Source: Escherichia phage vB_EcoS_AKFV33. From it: a stretch of 64,000 bases of DNA. The stretch lies in the sequence record NC_017969.1; one strand, given 5' to 3'. Positions 1 to 6,561 of this stretch are shown here, one piece after another (position 1 is the first letter of the stretch; each line of letters starts with the position of its first letter). The notes beneath the pieces were generated by a model. It was given only the letters and a program-made list of their open reading frames with translations. It did not search any database and was not told where the DNA came from. Made by a program: the position numbers and the translations under genes.

Positions 1-48
1 GACCCGCCGATCTATCGGAACCTACATAATAAGTAAACTTTATAGTGT

Positions 49-125
49 CATTCTAGACAGGACTCGAACCTGTTATCACTTGTGCGGACTTACGAGAACC
101 ATTCTTTCACTCGAATCGAACGAGC
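49..125 (-). tRNA. tRNA-like element, identity unresolved
   Basis: canonical T-arm (ACAGG-TTCGAGT-CCTGT as reverse complement of 57-73) and acceptor 3' half; a perfect 7-nt acceptor partner only occurs at 163-169, giving an implausible ~120 nt. Confidence 0.25.
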
Positions 126-291
126 TTCTGCCCTCGCCAAGCTGGTTTCCCCACCAACCACGCTAGAATGTTTGATTGTTTTCAGTGCAAGAGTCCGAGT
201 CTTGGACACGACCGCTTTGCAAGTACATAGGCAGCTTATCATGAGTCAGCACTTCCGAATTGCTAGCTCCGTGTTCTGCACTGAAATTTTA

Positions 292-639
292 TTAGTTTAA
301 CCTTAAAGTATTATCTACTTCACCATTAATTGTTCGGCATTCCTCTGGAATTGCTGGAGTAGCCTTGTATTCCCACCACTCAGCTCCATCATATTCCCCA
401 CGTTCTAGCCAGGTTCCATCGGCAAACCATACATTACCATAAAGTAGTTGTCCACCATAACCAGAATCATACTCAAAGTCTAGGTTATTAAGAAAATCCC
501 CAATATCTTCTTCTGTATACCCCAGAGGTAATACCCAAACTTTTTTGTCCCCATAATACCCGAATTCTATTTTAATACACTTAACTTCAGAATTAGTATT
601 TTTTAAGGCAAGTAACAACTCTTCTTTAGCATTACGCAT
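292..639 (-). CDS. hypothetical protein (115 aa)
   Basis: ORF track; same strand as flanking tRNAs; no recognisable motif. Confidence 0.45.
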   Translation of the reverse strand: MRNAKEELLLALKNTNSEVKCIKIEFGYYGDKKVWVLPLGYTEEDIGDFLNNLDFEYDSGYGGQLLYGNVWFADGTWLERGEYDGAEWWEYKATPAIPEECRTINGEVDNTLRLN

Positions 640-665
640 AGTATATTTCTCGTGCTAGTTTAGTT

Positions 666-741
666 TGGTACACCCACTAGGACTTGAACCTAGAACCCTC
701 CGCTTAAGAGGCGGTAGCTCTAACCATTGAGCTATGGATGT
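666..741 (-). tRNA. tRNA-Lys (anticodon CTT)
   Basis: hand fold of reverse complement: acceptor ACATCCA/TGGGTGT, D-stem GCTC/GAGC, anticodon loop CTCTTAA, T-loop TTCAAGT, CCA encoded. Confidence 0.6.
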
Positions 742-742
742 A

Positions 743-901
743 TTAAATTACTTTTTCCAGTTCATCAGCTATGGCTTTGATTTTTTCAAAGTTTACATCA
801 CTAATAATGATACCTTCTAGTGACAGAGATATTCTAGCATTTTTCGTAGCAGATTCTTTTATCTGCTCTATCTCTTCTGGAGTAAACTCTCTACGTTCCA
901 T
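743..901 (-). CDS. small hypothetical protein (~52 aa)
   Basis: manual translation MERREFTPEEIEQIKESATKNARISLSLEG...; below ORF-track cutoff; ends 2 nt from tRNA-Lys. Confidence 0.3.
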   Translation of the reverse strand: MERREFTPEEIEQIKESATKNARISLSLEGIIISDVNFEKIKAIADELEKVI

Positions 902-918
902 AGCTAACCTACCTTATT

Positions 919-995
919 TGGCGCGACCGATGGGATTTGAACCCACATTCCCTCCCGTGACAGGGGAGTACCATTACCAAGCCAGCCCCGGTCGC
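919..995 (-). tRNA. tRNA-Asp (anticodon GTC)
   Basis: acceptor GCGACCG/CGGTCGC perfect, anticodon loop CTGTCAC, T-loop TTCAAAT, CCA encoded. Confidence 0.7.
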
Positions 996-1004
996 ATAAT
1001 TCAT

Positions 1005-1190
1005 TTACTCAGCTTTGAGTTTTTCAATAGCTGCATTAAGTTCTTTAAGAAACTCTTTTCGTACATTAAGACGGTTGAGACTTACTAGTATATCATGTTT
1101 AAGTTCTTCGATGTATTTCTTCTCAACTTCAATATTGTTGATAGTGCTATCACGATGAACTTCTAGCTGCGCAATTACATTCTTGGACAT
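1005..1190 (-). CDS. hypothetical protein (61 aa), charged/coiled
   Basis: ORF track. Confidence 0.35.
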   Translation of the reverse strand: MSKNVIAQLEVHRDSTINNIEVEKKYIEELKHDILVSLNRLNVRKEFLKELNAAIEKLKAE

Positions 1191-1292
1191 GCTTGTTTCC
1201 TCAGTTATTAATGAAAATGGTATCTGTGGCTGAATTCGATGTCAGCAATGATAGCTGGTTGGCTACCGGTTTACTTAACTCTACACAGAATT

Positions 1293-4091: not shown

Positions 4092-4180
4092 TGGCGGAAG
4101 AAGTGGGAATCGAACCCACAAGGCTATATTTCAAACCGACAGATTAGCAATCTGCTGCAATACCGTTATGCTATTCTTCC
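4092..4180 (-). tRNA. tRNA-Ser (anticodon GCT), type II
   Basis: acceptor GGAAGAA/TTCTTCC perfect, anticodon stem GCAGA/TCTGT with loop TTGCTAA, long variable arm, T-arm GTGGG-TTCGATT-CCCAC, CCA encoded. Confidence 0.65.
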
Positions 4181-4195
4181 GAATTTATAAGATAT

Positions 4196-4224
4196 ATTAT
4201 ATTAGAAATTTAGCTTCATAGCAA
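4196..4224 (-). promoter_or_regulatory. early promoter (TTGCTA-17-TATAAT) upstream of tRNA-Ser/tRNA-Met
   Basis: motif with downstream ATCTTATAAATT box. Confidence 0.5.
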
Positions 4225-4720
4225 GAAAATTTTTCAAGTTTTCGGTAGACATCTCATCCACATCTACAGGAGAAACAAAGCCGTTTAATTTTCTAGCAAA
4301 TTTTTCACCCGCAGGATCGTTATTCCCGACAGCTACCAATTTAAAAGGTAATAATTTCAGTTGCTTTAATAACGCTTTTCCTGGAGAAGAACCCAACATT
4401 GCTAGGGCTGGATAACCAGCGTTATGTAACGCAACTGCCTTAAATACAGATTCAGCGATCAATACTACTTTTTCATCTCCATTGAGAGTTTCTAATCCCC
4501 ATACACACTGGGTAGTAGAATAGGTAAAATATTTAGCTTCAAAGGGACACTTACCATGACCTTTTGGAGCAGAAGGATTATAAGTTTGATAGCCTCTCAA
4601 CATCCCAGAGAAATCATACAACGGGACTGTTAGCCATCCTTCCGGACTTAACCAGCAATGATATTTATCTGCATCAAATCCTCTAGATAGAAGATGTTGT
4701 GTTAATTCATCAACACCCAT
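4202..4720 (-). CDS. Toprim-domain protein resembling the catalytic core of the DnaG-like primase encoded at 36255-37145
   Basis: VVLIAESVF...LGS...VAVGNNDPAGEKFA pattern parallels VLILVEGIF...VVILLDNDASGNKAA of the primase in this window; no zinc finger. Confidence 0.45.
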   Translation of the reverse strand: MGVDELTQHLLSRGFDADKYHCWLSPEGWLTVPLYDFSGMLRGYQTYNPSAPKGHGKCPFEAKYFTYSTTQCVWGLETLNGDEKVVLIAESVFKAVALHNAGYPALAMLGSSPGKALLKQLKLLPFKLVAVGNNDPAGEKFARKLNGFVSPVDVDEMSTENLKNFLAMKLNF

Positions 4721-4816
4721 GTTTAATCTCCTAGTTAGTTTTATAATTACATTATATAGAAAAGCCCTGCGCTCTCCAGGAAACGCAGGGCTTACTTTAG
4801 ATGTTACATGCGGGTA

Positions 4817-5764
4817 TTATTTATTACGCATATCCATGATCATTTGGCCATCATAACCAGTACCAACTACCGTCTGTGGTACACCACCTTGATACTTCTG
4901 AGCACGGATCATTTCAACTTCCAGTTGCTTCCAGCGAATCATCTCAGGAGTAATGGTACGTTGCAATGCGGCGTTAGCTTCAGCTTCTTTCTTAGCTGCG
5001 TACAGTTTAGCATCTGCGTCACGTTCATTAGCAATAGCTTGGTTGTTGCGAGCTTCACGATCTGCTTCTGCTTGTTTAACTTTTTGCTGTGCTTCCTGTT
5101 CAACACGAGCTAATTCAGCTTTAGCAGCATTAACCTGTTCTTCACGAACTTTGGTATTCTGTACCTGTTCCATGATTACCGGTGGCAAAGTAATATCCTG
5201 AAGGAACACCTGCTTAACTGTGTAACCATATGGGCGTGCATACTCTTCAACTTCCTGTTGAATTGCAGTTTGCAATTGAGCCTGAATTTTAGCATCAAAT
5301 AAATCTTGTGCTTTAGGTACAGACTTACCAAACTCACGAATAGTAGACAGTAATTTTTCAGTTACATATTTGTCTAACGCTTGATCCTGAGTACCTGCAT
5401 TAATACGGTTAATCGGTGCTTTAGAACCATCAAACTGCAACATAACAGTCAGGTCAACAGTGGATTTAAACTTATCCTGACTAGGAACCTGAAGTTTATC
5501 TAATTTTAGAGCAATATCTTTAGTACTAAAAGTATCAAAAGAAGCAAAAGGATTTACAATATGGAAACCAGGTAATACTGGATTAGGATCAACTTTACCC
5601 AAGAAAGTCTGGGTCTTAACAGTACCGTCTTGAACAACGGTATAGGAGTTAAGAGCTAGAACTAAACCTGCTAAACCAACTACAGCACCAATCCCCCAAC
5701 GTTTAATAGTACGAATTACTTTCTGCTCAGAAGTCAGTTCTTTCATATTTTTAGTATTAAACAT
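4817..5764 (-). CDS. SPFH/band-7 (prohibitin/HflC-like) membrane protein
   Basis: N-terminal TM helix, band-7-like core, Ala/Gln/Glu-rich coiled-coil C-terminus. Confidence 0.7.
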   Translation of the reverse strand: MFNTKNMKELTSEQKVIRTIKRWGIGAVVGLAGLVLALNSYTVVQDGTVKTQTFLGKVDPNPVLPGFHIVNPFASFDTFSTKDIALKLDKLQVPSQDKFKSTVDLTVMLQFDGSKAPINRINAGTQDQALDKYVTEKLLSTIREFGKSVPKAQDLFDAKIQAQLQTAIQQEVEEYARPYGYTVKQVFLQDITLPPVIMEQVQNTKVREEQVNAAKAELARVEQEAQQKVKQAEADREARNNQAIANERDADAKLYAAKKEAEANAALQRTITPEMIRWKQLEVEMIRAQKYQGGVPQTVVGTGYDGQMIMDMRNK

Positions 5765-5798
5765 ATATTTCCTTTGTTTTAGTTACAGTTAATAAAAT

Positions 5799-5873
5799 TG
5801 GCCGAGGTGACAGGATTCGAACCTGCATAAAGGAATTTAGAAGACTCCTGCCTCTCCCTTAGACTACACCCCG
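5799..5873 (-). tRNA. tRNA-Arg (anticodon TCT)
   Basis: acceptor CGGGGTG/CACCTCG, anticodon stem GGAGT/ATTCC with loop CTTCTAA, T-arm GCAGG-TTCGAAT-CCTGT, CCA encoded. Confidence 0.55.
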
Positions 5874-6375
5874 TTTAAGTATTTTTAAGAACTCTCGTAA
5901 AAACTCTTAAAAATACAGACGATACCGGGAGAGTCATAAGTCTCACTCATTAAGTATTTCAAGACAAAATACAGTAACGTCTATTATTTTCCAGTTTAAG
6001 TCAGGGTGACTTAGTGGTTATGTCCTGCGGTATATTGAGGACTCGGTTAGGCTTGGGGTCATGACTTCCCGCCTTTTGCTGCTACTCAACAGGAATTATC
6101 GCGAATTACCTGTGCTATTGTGCACCATTAGTGACATCTCTCATGTCAGCATTTCCCACTTTGTGGATAGCTTGAAAAACTACTCCGATGTGGAGAAAGA
6201 ACTTCACTATCCTAGAATACCTTCTAAAGTTCTTCTTTAGCCTGGACATAGTTAAACCGTAATAAAACTATTCAGCAGACTGGTTGGTTAGTCTGGAACC
6301 AACTACCGCGTGGTTTAGGCAGTGCGCAACTAACCTCGGAAGCTTTTACGTTAAAAGCATCAGTTATCCAGTTCT

Positions 6376-6448
6376 TACCGACCGTAGGATTCGAACCTAC
6401 ATCTTCCACCAGTTACGGCTTGATAATACCAATTATACTAGGACGGCA
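6376..6448 (-). tRNA. tRNA-like element, anticodon arm not resolvable
   Basis: perfect T-arm GTAGG-TTCGAAT-CCTAC and 6/7 acceptor pairing; no convincing 5-7-5 anticodon stem-loop; no CCA. Confidence 0.3.
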
Positions 6449-6524
6449 GTGTTACTACATAAGTGATTTCCACACCCCACTATTTATAAATTAGATGCCT
6501 AATTATCATCTAATTTATGAATAT

Positions 6525-6553
6525 ATTATATAGAATTTATAAGCATTTAGCAA
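6525..6553 (-). promoter_or_regulatory. early promoter (TTGCTA-17-TATAAT)
   Basis: motif plus downstream ATTCATAAATT box. Confidence 0.5.
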
Positions 6554-6561
6554 ATGAATTT

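Follow-up and report, generated by a model that had tools for sequence, protein, structure and literature searches.

The tRNA island of Escherichia phage vB_EcoS_AKFV33 as the probable promoter-proximal half of a T5-like tRNA-rich region

The first 6,560 nucleotides of a 64,000-nucleotide stretch of Escherichia phage vB_EcoS_AKFV33 (NC_017969.1; this whole stretch is called the window below) carry a dense minus-strand array of 12 tRNA genes and 13 open reading frames (ORFs) within 6.5 kb. This island is very probably the promoter-proximal half of the tRNA-rich region (TRR) of T5-like phages (Tequintavirus), in which early promoters would serve tRNAs used for codon supply and against host defences, together with anti-defence ORFs. 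The T5 region is already known, and has been described and partly tested by experiment (PMC11464382, PMC11555353); the term ‘tRNA-rich region’, for some ~8 kb, is that of Azam et al. 2024 (PMC11555353). With a map dating from the 1980s and a functional dissection from 2023-2024, finding the region again is in itself of little weight. The value is that of a positive control, since tRNAs, promoters and ORF artefacts were recovered from sequence alone at the correct coordinates. The anatomy, homology, promoter motif enrichment, patchwork content and codon bias demonstrated below come from the present analysis; dispensability, the function of tRNA-Tyr and its promoter, and the function of the Toprim protein Rad come from the literature (for Rad, from a preprint only).

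Positions 1-7000 of the window are 95.4% identical over 96% of their length to Escherichia phage IME178 (Tequintavirus, Demerecviridae), and 511 phage records match them, nearly all T5-like. Gene order is common to the window and its annotated relatives IME178, slur09, DT57C, T5 st0, T5 ATCC 11303-B5 and SP15, and the tRNA-rich region sits between T5.067-type and T5.081/SleB-type genes in the orientation found in T5-like genomes. In the relatives the tRNA array runs ~5 kb beyond the counterpart of window position 1, with 11 extra tRNA genes there in IME178. Thus, the island runs on past the left edge of the window, which holds the promoter-proximal half only.

ARAGORN finds 11 tRNA genes in the window; they lie between 666 and 5873, and every one is on the minus strand. 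The Rfam model RF00005 at its gathering threshold gives 13 matches on that strand, spanning 666-6447, which are ARAGORN's 11 plus 4011-4085 and 6376-6447. Neither finds a tRNA elsewhere in the 64 kb, and a relaxed E-value Rfam search of 1-7000 brought up no real tRNA beyond the 13; plus-strand ‘Plastid-ycf2/psbl’ matches were rejected as antisense images of tRNAs. Twelve of the 13 matches fold as cloverleaves and end in an encoded CCA (E 8e-12 to 6e-3), giving 12 credible genes, whilst the match at 6376-6447 lacks the CCA and has a deformed anticodon arm. A first-pass annotation of the same letters, made without database searches, had called 13-14 tRNA genes on the minus strand. The strand is borne out and the number is about right when set against the Rfam matches, automated prediction having found nothing like far fewer, but the credible genes are 12 and 6376-6447 belongs to a larger RNA, RNAX, discussed below. 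The same annotation was also right that several listed ORFs are spurious because they run across tRNA genes: 3799-4134 (a TTG start; the real coding sequence is 3799-3987), 771-1088(+), 1201-1335, 1271-1408, 2208-2354(+), 2270-2404 and 6272-6409.

The run at 2209-2549 holds Tyr, Glu, Trp and Phe with spacers of 7, 8 and 6 nt, and its tRNA-Tyr is 100% identical over 91 nt to the SP15 allele and differs from the allele of T5, IME178 and slur09. The CAU tRNA at 4008-4085 has a weak T stem of 3 bp and is 100% identical in T5; it is labelled tRNA-Met in IME178, T5 and SP15 and tRNA-Ile(CAU) in DT57C. A host origin for the class-I tRNA-Leu(UAA) was rejected, as a search of the E. coli chromosome gave no match. 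T5's own tRNA-Leu(UAG) is class II, and slur09, DT57C and IME178 have a similar class-I ‘Leu’(UAG). The tRNA-Asn of T5 is without the long variable arm seen in the window.

A generic sigma-70 consensus scan was not enriched (20 sites, with 17.9 expected) and for that reason cannot alone back the promoters. Support comes instead from a T5-specific spaced motif and from homology to annotated T5 promoters. Across the window there are 22 copies of the motif TTGC-N19/20-TATAAT, where chance would give 0.74, and none of 100 shuffles reached this number; every copy lies on the strand of the local genes. In most copies an A-tract precedes the TTGCT -35 and TATAAT, and the start region reads ATAAATT. 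This start region is the pattern of the classic T5 promoter PN25, and a near-exact PN25-like copy lies at 29697-29738 (+). Five minus-strand copies of the motif fall within the island, so that the number of promoters is at least five, and T5P18, T5P19 and T5P20 of T5 are 98.5-98.6% identical to three of them. Motif and homology together argue that the island promoters are T5-type early promoters. Those placed at 2613-2646, 4196-4224 and 6525-6553 by the first-pass annotation, directly upstream of tRNA runs, coincide with such motifs and do have runs directly downstream; its count of three was too low. In the first of them, the tRNA-Tyr promoter, TTGCTC at 2641-2636 with a 17-nt spacer is a better -35 than TTGACT at 2646. 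The strength of the corresponding promoter of SP15 has been tested experimentally (PMC11555353).

From their anatomy, the transcription units would be mixed tRNA-mRNA operons rather than pure tRNA operons, and this is where the earlier description of tRNA operons with their own promoters needs amending: tRNA runs do stand at promoters, but the units would go on into ORFs. All 13 interleaved minus-strand ORFs, as well as the flanking ORF, match PHROG families (E 1e-30 to 1e-86). The SPFH protein proposed earlier is secure, with PF01145 matching ORF 4817-5764 at E 3e-17 and 63.6 bits (gathering cut-off 23.6). The small ORFs had been described as Cys-rich in general, two of them with zinc-ribbon-like patterns. 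The two hold at the level of motif, but the general description does not, as Cys-rich ORFs are just two of the 13. ORF 3604-3789 contains CPECRGIG and CPNCNGTG, the DnaJ-type zinc-binding pattern, and its match to the DnaJ zinc finger PF00684 (E 0.011, 16.4 bits) lies below the cut-off of 32.7. In ORF 1459-1647, the CC-x14-CxC arrangement is kept even in homologues with 53% identity. Zinc binding by these two proteins is plausible from their sequences.

The protein of ORF 4202-4720, previously called a primase-like Toprim protein, is a homologue of SP15 ORF75. The two are identical at 169 of 172 residues (98%) and both genes lie upstream of tRNA-Ser(GCU). Pfam Toprim_2 matches it below threshold (E 0.0016), but the protein aligns to positions 146-337 of the 435-position PHROG 849 ‘DNA primase’ profile with E 7e-61. 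An AlphaFold2 model (pLDDT 88.9) has as its top Foldseek matches the DnaG RNA-polymerase domain and a T7 gp4 primase fragment (E ~1e-6, TM 0.6-0.72). A PDB sequence search gave no meaningful match. The Toprim glutamate (E90) and the DxD region are present, and ‘primase-like’ appears correct as a description of the modelled fold. Neither a zinc-binding nor a helicase-binding domain of primases was found in the 172 residues by the PHROG alignment or the model. The family comprises 419 representative clusters, mostly stand-alone proteins of 165-190 amino acids. An RNase M5-like identity was rejected, the RNase M5 Toprim domain matching only half of the protein at E 2e-3 against 1e-6 for primase cores in Foldseek. 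ORF75 was named ‘Rad’ in a preprint, as a Toprim protein lowering or degrading retron noncoding RNA (10.1101/2023.03.15.532788), and it rescues phage from retrons Eco2 and Eco7 (PMC11555353). The residues whose mutation lowers Rad activity in the preprint, R13, P33, I88, D135 and E156 (10.1101/2023.03.15.532788), are all present in the window. Residue 133 (codon AAT, 4322-4324, minus strand), the first Asp of the DxD elsewhere, is Asn here (D133N). Aspartate occupies this position in 16 of 17 homologous loci and in all seven family members down to 41% identity, leaving Asn to the window alone, and the exact 23-mer carrying the change is absent from IMG/VR.

Comparison with five relatives supports the earlier picture of a mosaic of tRNAs, promoters and small ORFs. 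Each ORF and tRNA allele has its own pattern of presence, absence or replacement. Both Cys-rich ORFs are found in IME178 and slur09 only, the tRNA-Cys allele matches none of the five, and homing-endonuclease genes stand at several junctions in relatives.

Part of what the region does has been learnt from deletions and from defence systems. The T5 st0 record has a deletion between T5p066 and T5p079, roughly window 1000-6900, and ~8-kb deletions are known in T5Mos, T5n and SP15m (PMC11464382, PMC11555353). By homology, mapping onto these viable deletion mutants, the region is probably dispensable on laboratory hosts. T5 has 23 tRNAs, of which the 8-kb T5Mos deletion takes out 16 (Burman et al. 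2024, PMC11464382). T5 tRNA-Lys resists the PARIS nuclease AriB and rescues infection (PMC11464382), and the tRNA-Tyr of SP15 and T5, with its own very strong promoter, rescues phage from retron-Eco7, whose effector PtuAB depletes host tRNA-Tyr (PMC11555353). ORF71/72 are active against retron Ec83 (preprint 10.1101/2023.03.15.532788).

The most likely mechanism is as follows. After DNA entry, host sigma-70 RNA polymerase would start at five or six very strong minus-strand early promoters and would make mixed precursors, with tRNAs alternating with tRNA-like stable RNAs and short mRNAs. The tRNAs, 2-8 nt apart and with an encoded CCA, would be cut out by host RNase P and 3' processing enzymes. 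They would then supply codons over-used by the AT-rich phage (AGA, AAG, ATA and TTA), and would replace host tRNAs destroyed by defence nucleases, as with retron-Eco7 PtuAB and tRNA-Tyr. Some interleaved ORFs would be anti-defence proteins, the Toprim protein as Rad and ORF71/72 against retron Ec83. The region would be dispensable on defence-free laboratory hosts, and would evolve by cassette replacement, aided in relatives by homing endonucleases.

The island might instead do no more than match the tRNA pool to AT-rich codon use, with the ORFs as unrelated passengers. Codon use does lean this way. In 48 long window ORFs (GC 39%), AGA is used 2.9 times, AAG 1.9 times, ATA 1.7 times and TTA 1.5 times as often as in E. 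coli (approximate ratios), and the island carries matching tRNAs. However, five of the 12 tRNAs read codons of host-like frequency, the same tRNA-Tyr allele replaces a nuclease-depleted host tRNA, as tRNA-Lys also does (PMC11555353, PMC11464382), and deletion mutants grow normally on defence-free hosts. As the whole account, codon supplementation is quite improbable; it covers part of the tRNA set and anti-defence another part, and neither accounts for all. A selfish patchwork, in which the DNA is a landing pad for homing endonucleases or mobile cassettes and tRNA genes are kept as target sites, would suit content that varies like cassettes among close relatives and the HNH or homing endonuclease genes carried by the counterparts of the island in T5, slur09, MSP1 and PMBT31. 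It is very improbable here, as Pfam and PHROG scans of the island ORFs found no endonuclease gene within 1-6560, the cloverleaves are intact, CCA is encoded, the promoters are strong, and some of the tRNAs have a demonstrated function (PMC11464382, PMC11555353). Least of all, with hardly any probability, could the island be mostly junk in which many tRNA calls are decayed pseudogenes. The match at 6376-6447 is indeed not a standard tRNA and is labelled inconsistently, 4008-4085 has its 3-bp T stem, and the tRNA-like RNA3 and rna2 go uncalled. Against this, 12 genes exceed the curated Rfam threshold with cloverleaf folds and encoded CCA, and even the aberrant 6376-6447 has compensatory substitutions.

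The reading of the island as half of a T5-like TRR serving both codon supply and defence has points weighing against it too. The phage uses Trp, Phe, Cys, Asp and Glu codons about as often as the host does, and supplementation explains part of the tRNA set. The tRNA-Lys of the window is the CUU species, the PARIS-countering UUU species lying beyond the window edge in relatives. Functions are assigned to a minority of the small ORFs, and we infer the processing pathway with its processing sites, the operon boundaries and the roles of the remaining ORFs. The mechanism of Rad comes from the preprint only, the published version having left ORF75 to future work (PMC11555353). Lying in an otherwise invariant DxD motif, D133N implies that Rad may be impaired in this phage; either a loss of function that arose in nature or an error of sequencing may lie behind the change.

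RNAX and the smaller tRNA-like RNAs are the least studied part of the region, and few records annotate them. The copy in DT57C, rnaX (‘stable RNA with unknown functions’), is 96% identical to window 5874 to ~6500, and RNAX is kept in T5-like phages of Escherichia, Salmonella and Klebsiella (Tequintavirus, Epseptimavirus and Sugarlandvirus), with a more divergent copy in a 106-kb T5-like IMG/VR contig. Rfam offers no family at E <= 1 other than the tRNA family RF00005, and a search of the literature available to the analysis returned nothing on it. Coding ORFs within it (e.g. 6115-6249, 44 amino acids) were rejected, owing to 1-nt indels in T5 and MSP1 and a missing start region in rutana and PMBT31; because its sizeable ORF is thus frameshifted or start-less in relatives, RNAX is noncoding.

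The 5' module of RNAX (window 6331-6483) is a tRNA-like core on a 12-bp extension helix. From an alignment of eight distinct variants RNAalifold predicts a structure of 33 pairs; compensatory double changes occur at 15 of these, and 97.7% of cells are paired by pair-counting. Shuffles give only 4.5 +/- 1.5 covarying pairs (none of 500 reaches 15), and sliding the partners by 1-3 columns gives 0-3, the structure having been derived from the same alignment that was used for the test. Because of these compensatory substitutions, 6376-6447 appears to be under selection for structure. Within the core, the acceptor-like stem is 7 bp long and includes a conserved U.U at 5-68, and the T arm is canonical. 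The position of the anticodon arm is taken by a 3-bp stem and a 6-nt loop, where a canonical tRNA has 5 bp and 7 nt, and since the acceptor stem runs on into the 12-bp helix the module has no free 3' end. By its loop, its U.U, its want of CCA and the silence of ARAGORN in the window, 6376-6447 is not a canonical tRNA. ARAGORN labels the T5 copy Ser(ACU), and records of relatives call it pseudo, Undet, OTHER or Sec, and in the Kpn02 homologue tRNA-Pro. Public annotation of the region is inconsistent in general, with these five tRNA labels for one module and the stable RNAs omitted by most records.

A covariance model of the 5' module finds exactly one strong copy per genome, including Eps7 (83.6 bits, outside the training set), and elsewhere only weak matches to true tRNA cores. 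With one strong copy per genome, the module has no family of paralogues; the other stable RNAs were rejected as such for giving only these weak tRNA-core matches. The whole of RNAX folds better than shuffled controls (z -2.58). In its 3' domain, single-sequence folds return a recurring three-way junction, and an invariant terminal hairpin abuts tRNA-Arg. Consensus prediction gave invariant helices only, with no covariation, and a consensus three-way junction was not supported statistically. A 17-nt inverted repeat (16 of 17 complementary) at 6481-6523 is formed from the first transcribed bases of RNAX and is possibly a protective stem-loop at its 5' end.

RNA3, which comes 2 nt after tRNA-Asn, rna2, which has paired ends and two T-arm-like hairpins, and RNAIV were placed by mapping from the curated DT57C and T5 st0 records, and none is called by tRNA finders. 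With these RNAs, RNAX and the known T5 region all unrecognised in the first-pass annotation, the results support the view that its sequence-only interpretation was incomplete rather than wrong. It is an unlikely proposal, but one worth stating, that RNAX is a functional large structured RNA whose 5' module is a Y-RNA-like mimic of tRNA, serving as a decoy or adaptor for a host tRNA-binding factor. Its targets may be a tRNA-targeting defence nuclease, Ro60/PNPase or RNA-repair sensors, and RNA3, rna2 and RNAIV could act like it. If this is true, RNAX would give the T5 tRNA-rich region an anti-defence element made of RNA. As a conserved structured RNA inside an anti-defence island, it makes a reasonable experimental target.

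Table 1. Features of the island in window coordinates (aa, amino acids). Transcription units are predicted; P with a number names a promoter by its higher coordinate.
Feature	Position	Strand	Remarks
RNAX, ~640-nt noncoding structured RNA	5874-6518	-	between promoter and tRNA-Arg; contains tRNA-like match 6376-6447
RNA3, 73 nt, tRNA-like	1218-1290	-	ends in CCA; 100% identity to DT57C ‘putative stable RNA’
rna2, 125 nt, tRNA-like stable RNA	46-170	-	96% identity to T5 st0 annotation
RNAIV, first 27 nt (103 nt in T5)	1-27	-	cut by window edge
tRNA-Lys(CUU)	666-741	-	ARAGORN, Rfam; among five relatives in IME178 only
tRNA-Asp(GUC)	919-995	-	ARAGORN, Rfam
tRNA-Asn(GUU)	1293-1375	-	ARAGORN, Rfam; 13-nt variable arm
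tRNA-Cys(GCA)	1382-1456	-	ARAGORN, Rfam
tRNA-Phe(GAA)	2209-2283	-	ARAGORN, Rfam
tRNA-Trp(CCA)	2290-2366	-	ARAGORN, Rfam
tRNA-Glu(UUC)	2375-2451	-	ARAGORN, Rfam
tRNA-Tyr(GUA)	2459-2549	-	ARAGORN, Rfam
tRNA-Leu(UAA) by anticodon	3426-3502	-	class I, short variable loop, A73, CCA encoded
tRNA with CAU anticodon (Met or Ile2)	4008-4085	-	CCA encoded; Rfam 38.2 bits, missed by ARAGORN
tRNA-Ser(GCU)	4092-4180	-	class II, CCA encoded
tRNA-Arg(UCU)	5799-5873	-	CCA encoded; 100% identical in five relatives
SPFH/Band-7 membrane protein, 315 aa (T5.080)	4817-5764	-	Pfam PF01145; PHROG 200
DnaG-type Toprim protein, 172 aa, SP15 ORF75 ‘Rad’ homologue	4202-4720	-	PHROG, AlphaFold2, Foldseek
Small ORF, 62 aa	3799-3987	-	PHROG 10617; annotated in IME178, slur09, SP15
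Cys-rich ORF, 61 aa	3604-3789	-	two CXXCXGXG motifs; PHROGs label ‘anti-termination protein Q-like’
Small ORF, 55 aa, SP15 ORF73 homologue	3243-3410	-	PHROG match
Small ORF, 68 aa, SP15 ORF72 homologue	3044-3250	-	PHROG match
Small ORF, 91 aa, SP15 ORF71 homologue	2678-2953	-	PHROG match
Small ORF, 90 aa from ATG 2191	1919-2191	-	PHROG 5876
Small ORF, 73 aa from ATG 1865	1644-1865	-	PHROG 8408
Cys-rich ORF, 62 aa	1459-1647	-	CC-x14-CxC; PHROG 7042; DUF7695 below threshold
Small ORF, 61 aa (T5.068)	1005-1190	-	DUF7337 (Pfam)
Small ORF, 52 aa	743-901	-	PHROG 19286; among five relatives IME178 only, partial
ORF, 115 aa (T5.067)	292-639	-	PHROG 3972
T5-type early promoter	6525-6553	-	TTGCTA-17-TATAAT then ATAAATT; predicted to drive RNAX, tRNA-Arg, SPFH gene; overlaps T5 ‘repeat c copy 3’
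T5-type early promoter	4196-4224	-	within 3' end of Rad gene; predicted start ~8 nt before tRNA-Ser
T5-type early promoter (= T5P20)	2984-3013	-	98.6% identity
T5-type early promoter (= T5P19, tRNA-Tyr promoter)	2613-2641	-	TGn-extended -10; 98.5% identity
T5-type early promoter (= T5P18)	1898-1926	-	98.6% identity
Weaker sixth promoter site	4751-4778	-	generic scan; overlaps terminator hairpin upstream of Toprim gene
Intrinsic-terminator-like hairpin after SPFH gene	4762-4793	-	13-bp stem + T run
Unit A (predicted)		-	P6553, RNAX, tRNA-Arg, SPFH gene, terminator hairpin 4793-4762
Unit B (predicted)		-	P4778, Toprim gene
Unit C (predicted)		-	P4224, tRNA-Ser, tRNA(CAU), ORF 3987-3799, zinc-finger ORF, tRNA-Leu(UAA), ORFs 3410-3243, 3250-3044
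Unit D (predicted)		-	P3013, ORF 2953-2678, hairpin
Unit E (predicted)		-	P2641, tRNA-Tyr, Glu, Trp, Phe, ORF 2191-1919
Unit F (predicted)		-	P1926, two ORFs, tRNA-Cys, tRNA-Asn, RNA3, ORF 1190-1005, then tRNA-Asp, ORF 901-743, tRNA-Lys(CUU), ORF 639-292, rna2, RNAIV

Some further observations concern the island and its surroundings. The hairpin at 4762-4793 reads CCCTGCGC on the plus strand and is a homologue (88% over 57 nt) of the T5 ‘major single-stranded nick 3’ site. Directly after the stop of ORF 2678-2953 stands a 12-bp hairpin (2631-2669, minus strand) whose 3' arm holds the -35 of the tRNA-Tyr promoter. Between the zinc-finger ORF and tRNA-Leu, an unannotated 29-codon GTG ORF (VKLKDYYIGWFVGLVVGFSLGYNMYQLIN; 3509-3598, minus strand) would encode a hydrophobic peptide, its start falling a few nucleotides past the preceding stop codon. 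Over the whole window, the 22 T5-type promoters lie on the minus strand below ~19.6 kb and on the plus strand above ~22.3 kb, a switch that marks a divergent transcription boundary.

Just upstream of the island is a YqeY/GatB-tail-like protein (6562-6996, minus strand; PHROG ‘tRNA amidotransferase’, Pfam below threshold), and further upstream a protein with a cREC_REC ‘cyclic-phosphate processing receiver’ domain (7690-8007, minus strand; E 4e-15). Both domain types are tied to tRNA or RNA-repair biology. In the T5 record AY587007, every tRNA feature coordinate is shifted 68 nt downward relative to the sequence (Leu, for example, is annotated at 478-562 and placed by ARAGORN at 546-630), and because of this shift its tRNAs overlap coding sequences.

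The closest known system is the T5 TRR itself (AY543070/AY587007/AY692264), which has in common with the island its flanking genes, its strand, the order of most tRNAs and the promoters T5P18, T5P19 and T5P20. The likeness extends to the stable RNAs RNA3, rna2, RNAIV and RNAX and to the Toprim, SPFH and YqeY-like genes. However, T5 lacks or differs in the tRNA-Lys(CUU), tRNA-Trp, class-I tRNA-Leu(UAA), long-arm tRNA-Asn, SP15-type tRNA-Tyr, tRNA-Cys allele and two Cys-rich ORFs of the window. Between its Toprim and SPFH genes the window in turn lacks three plus-strand ORFs present in T5, and its Rad carries D133N, unlike that of T5.

The tRNA cluster of phage T4 comprises eight tRNAs, the stable species 1 and 2 RNAs and the SegB homing endonuclease. 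It resembles the island as a dispensable set of tRNAs, processed by the host and co-transcribed with tRNA-like stable RNAs and small ORFs. It differs in its unrelated sequences, its division into two sub-clusters, its far fewer promoters and its lack of counterparts of the Toprim protein, the SPFH protein and RNAX. This cluster (PMC2330249) served as the second comparison system.

For RNAX, the nearest likeness is to the bacterial Y RNAs (Yrn1 of D. radiodurans and YrlA; Chen et al. 2014, PMC4201824), which resemble its 5' module in having a tRNA-like domain, a T arm and a long stem formed by the flanking strands. The 6-nt ‘anticodon’ loop is as in Yrn1 (PMC4201824), and the aligned variants outside the T5/DT57C/MSP1 group have a GNCGAA-like motif immediately 5' to the stem (GUCGAA or GCCGAA, lacking the G that should follow). 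However, the window has GUGGAA rather than the GNCGAAN0-1G of Y RNAs, RNAX is ~640 nt long as against 80-130 nt, and the tRNA-like domain of YrlA is arranged differently. Rfam gives no Y RNA family match for RNAX, and Pfam and PHROG scans found no Ro60/Rsr gene among the ORFs examined at window 1-8000. Membership of the Y RNA family was rejected on these grounds: no Rfam match, a GNCGAA motif not kept in the window and no Ro60 nearby.

The Rad homologue, lastly, is like the primase cores of DnaG and T7 gp4 in fold, but it is only 172 amino acids long and without their zinc- or helicase-binding domain. The activity reported for its family is degradation of retron noncoding RNA rather than priming (preprint 10.1101/2023.03.15.532788).

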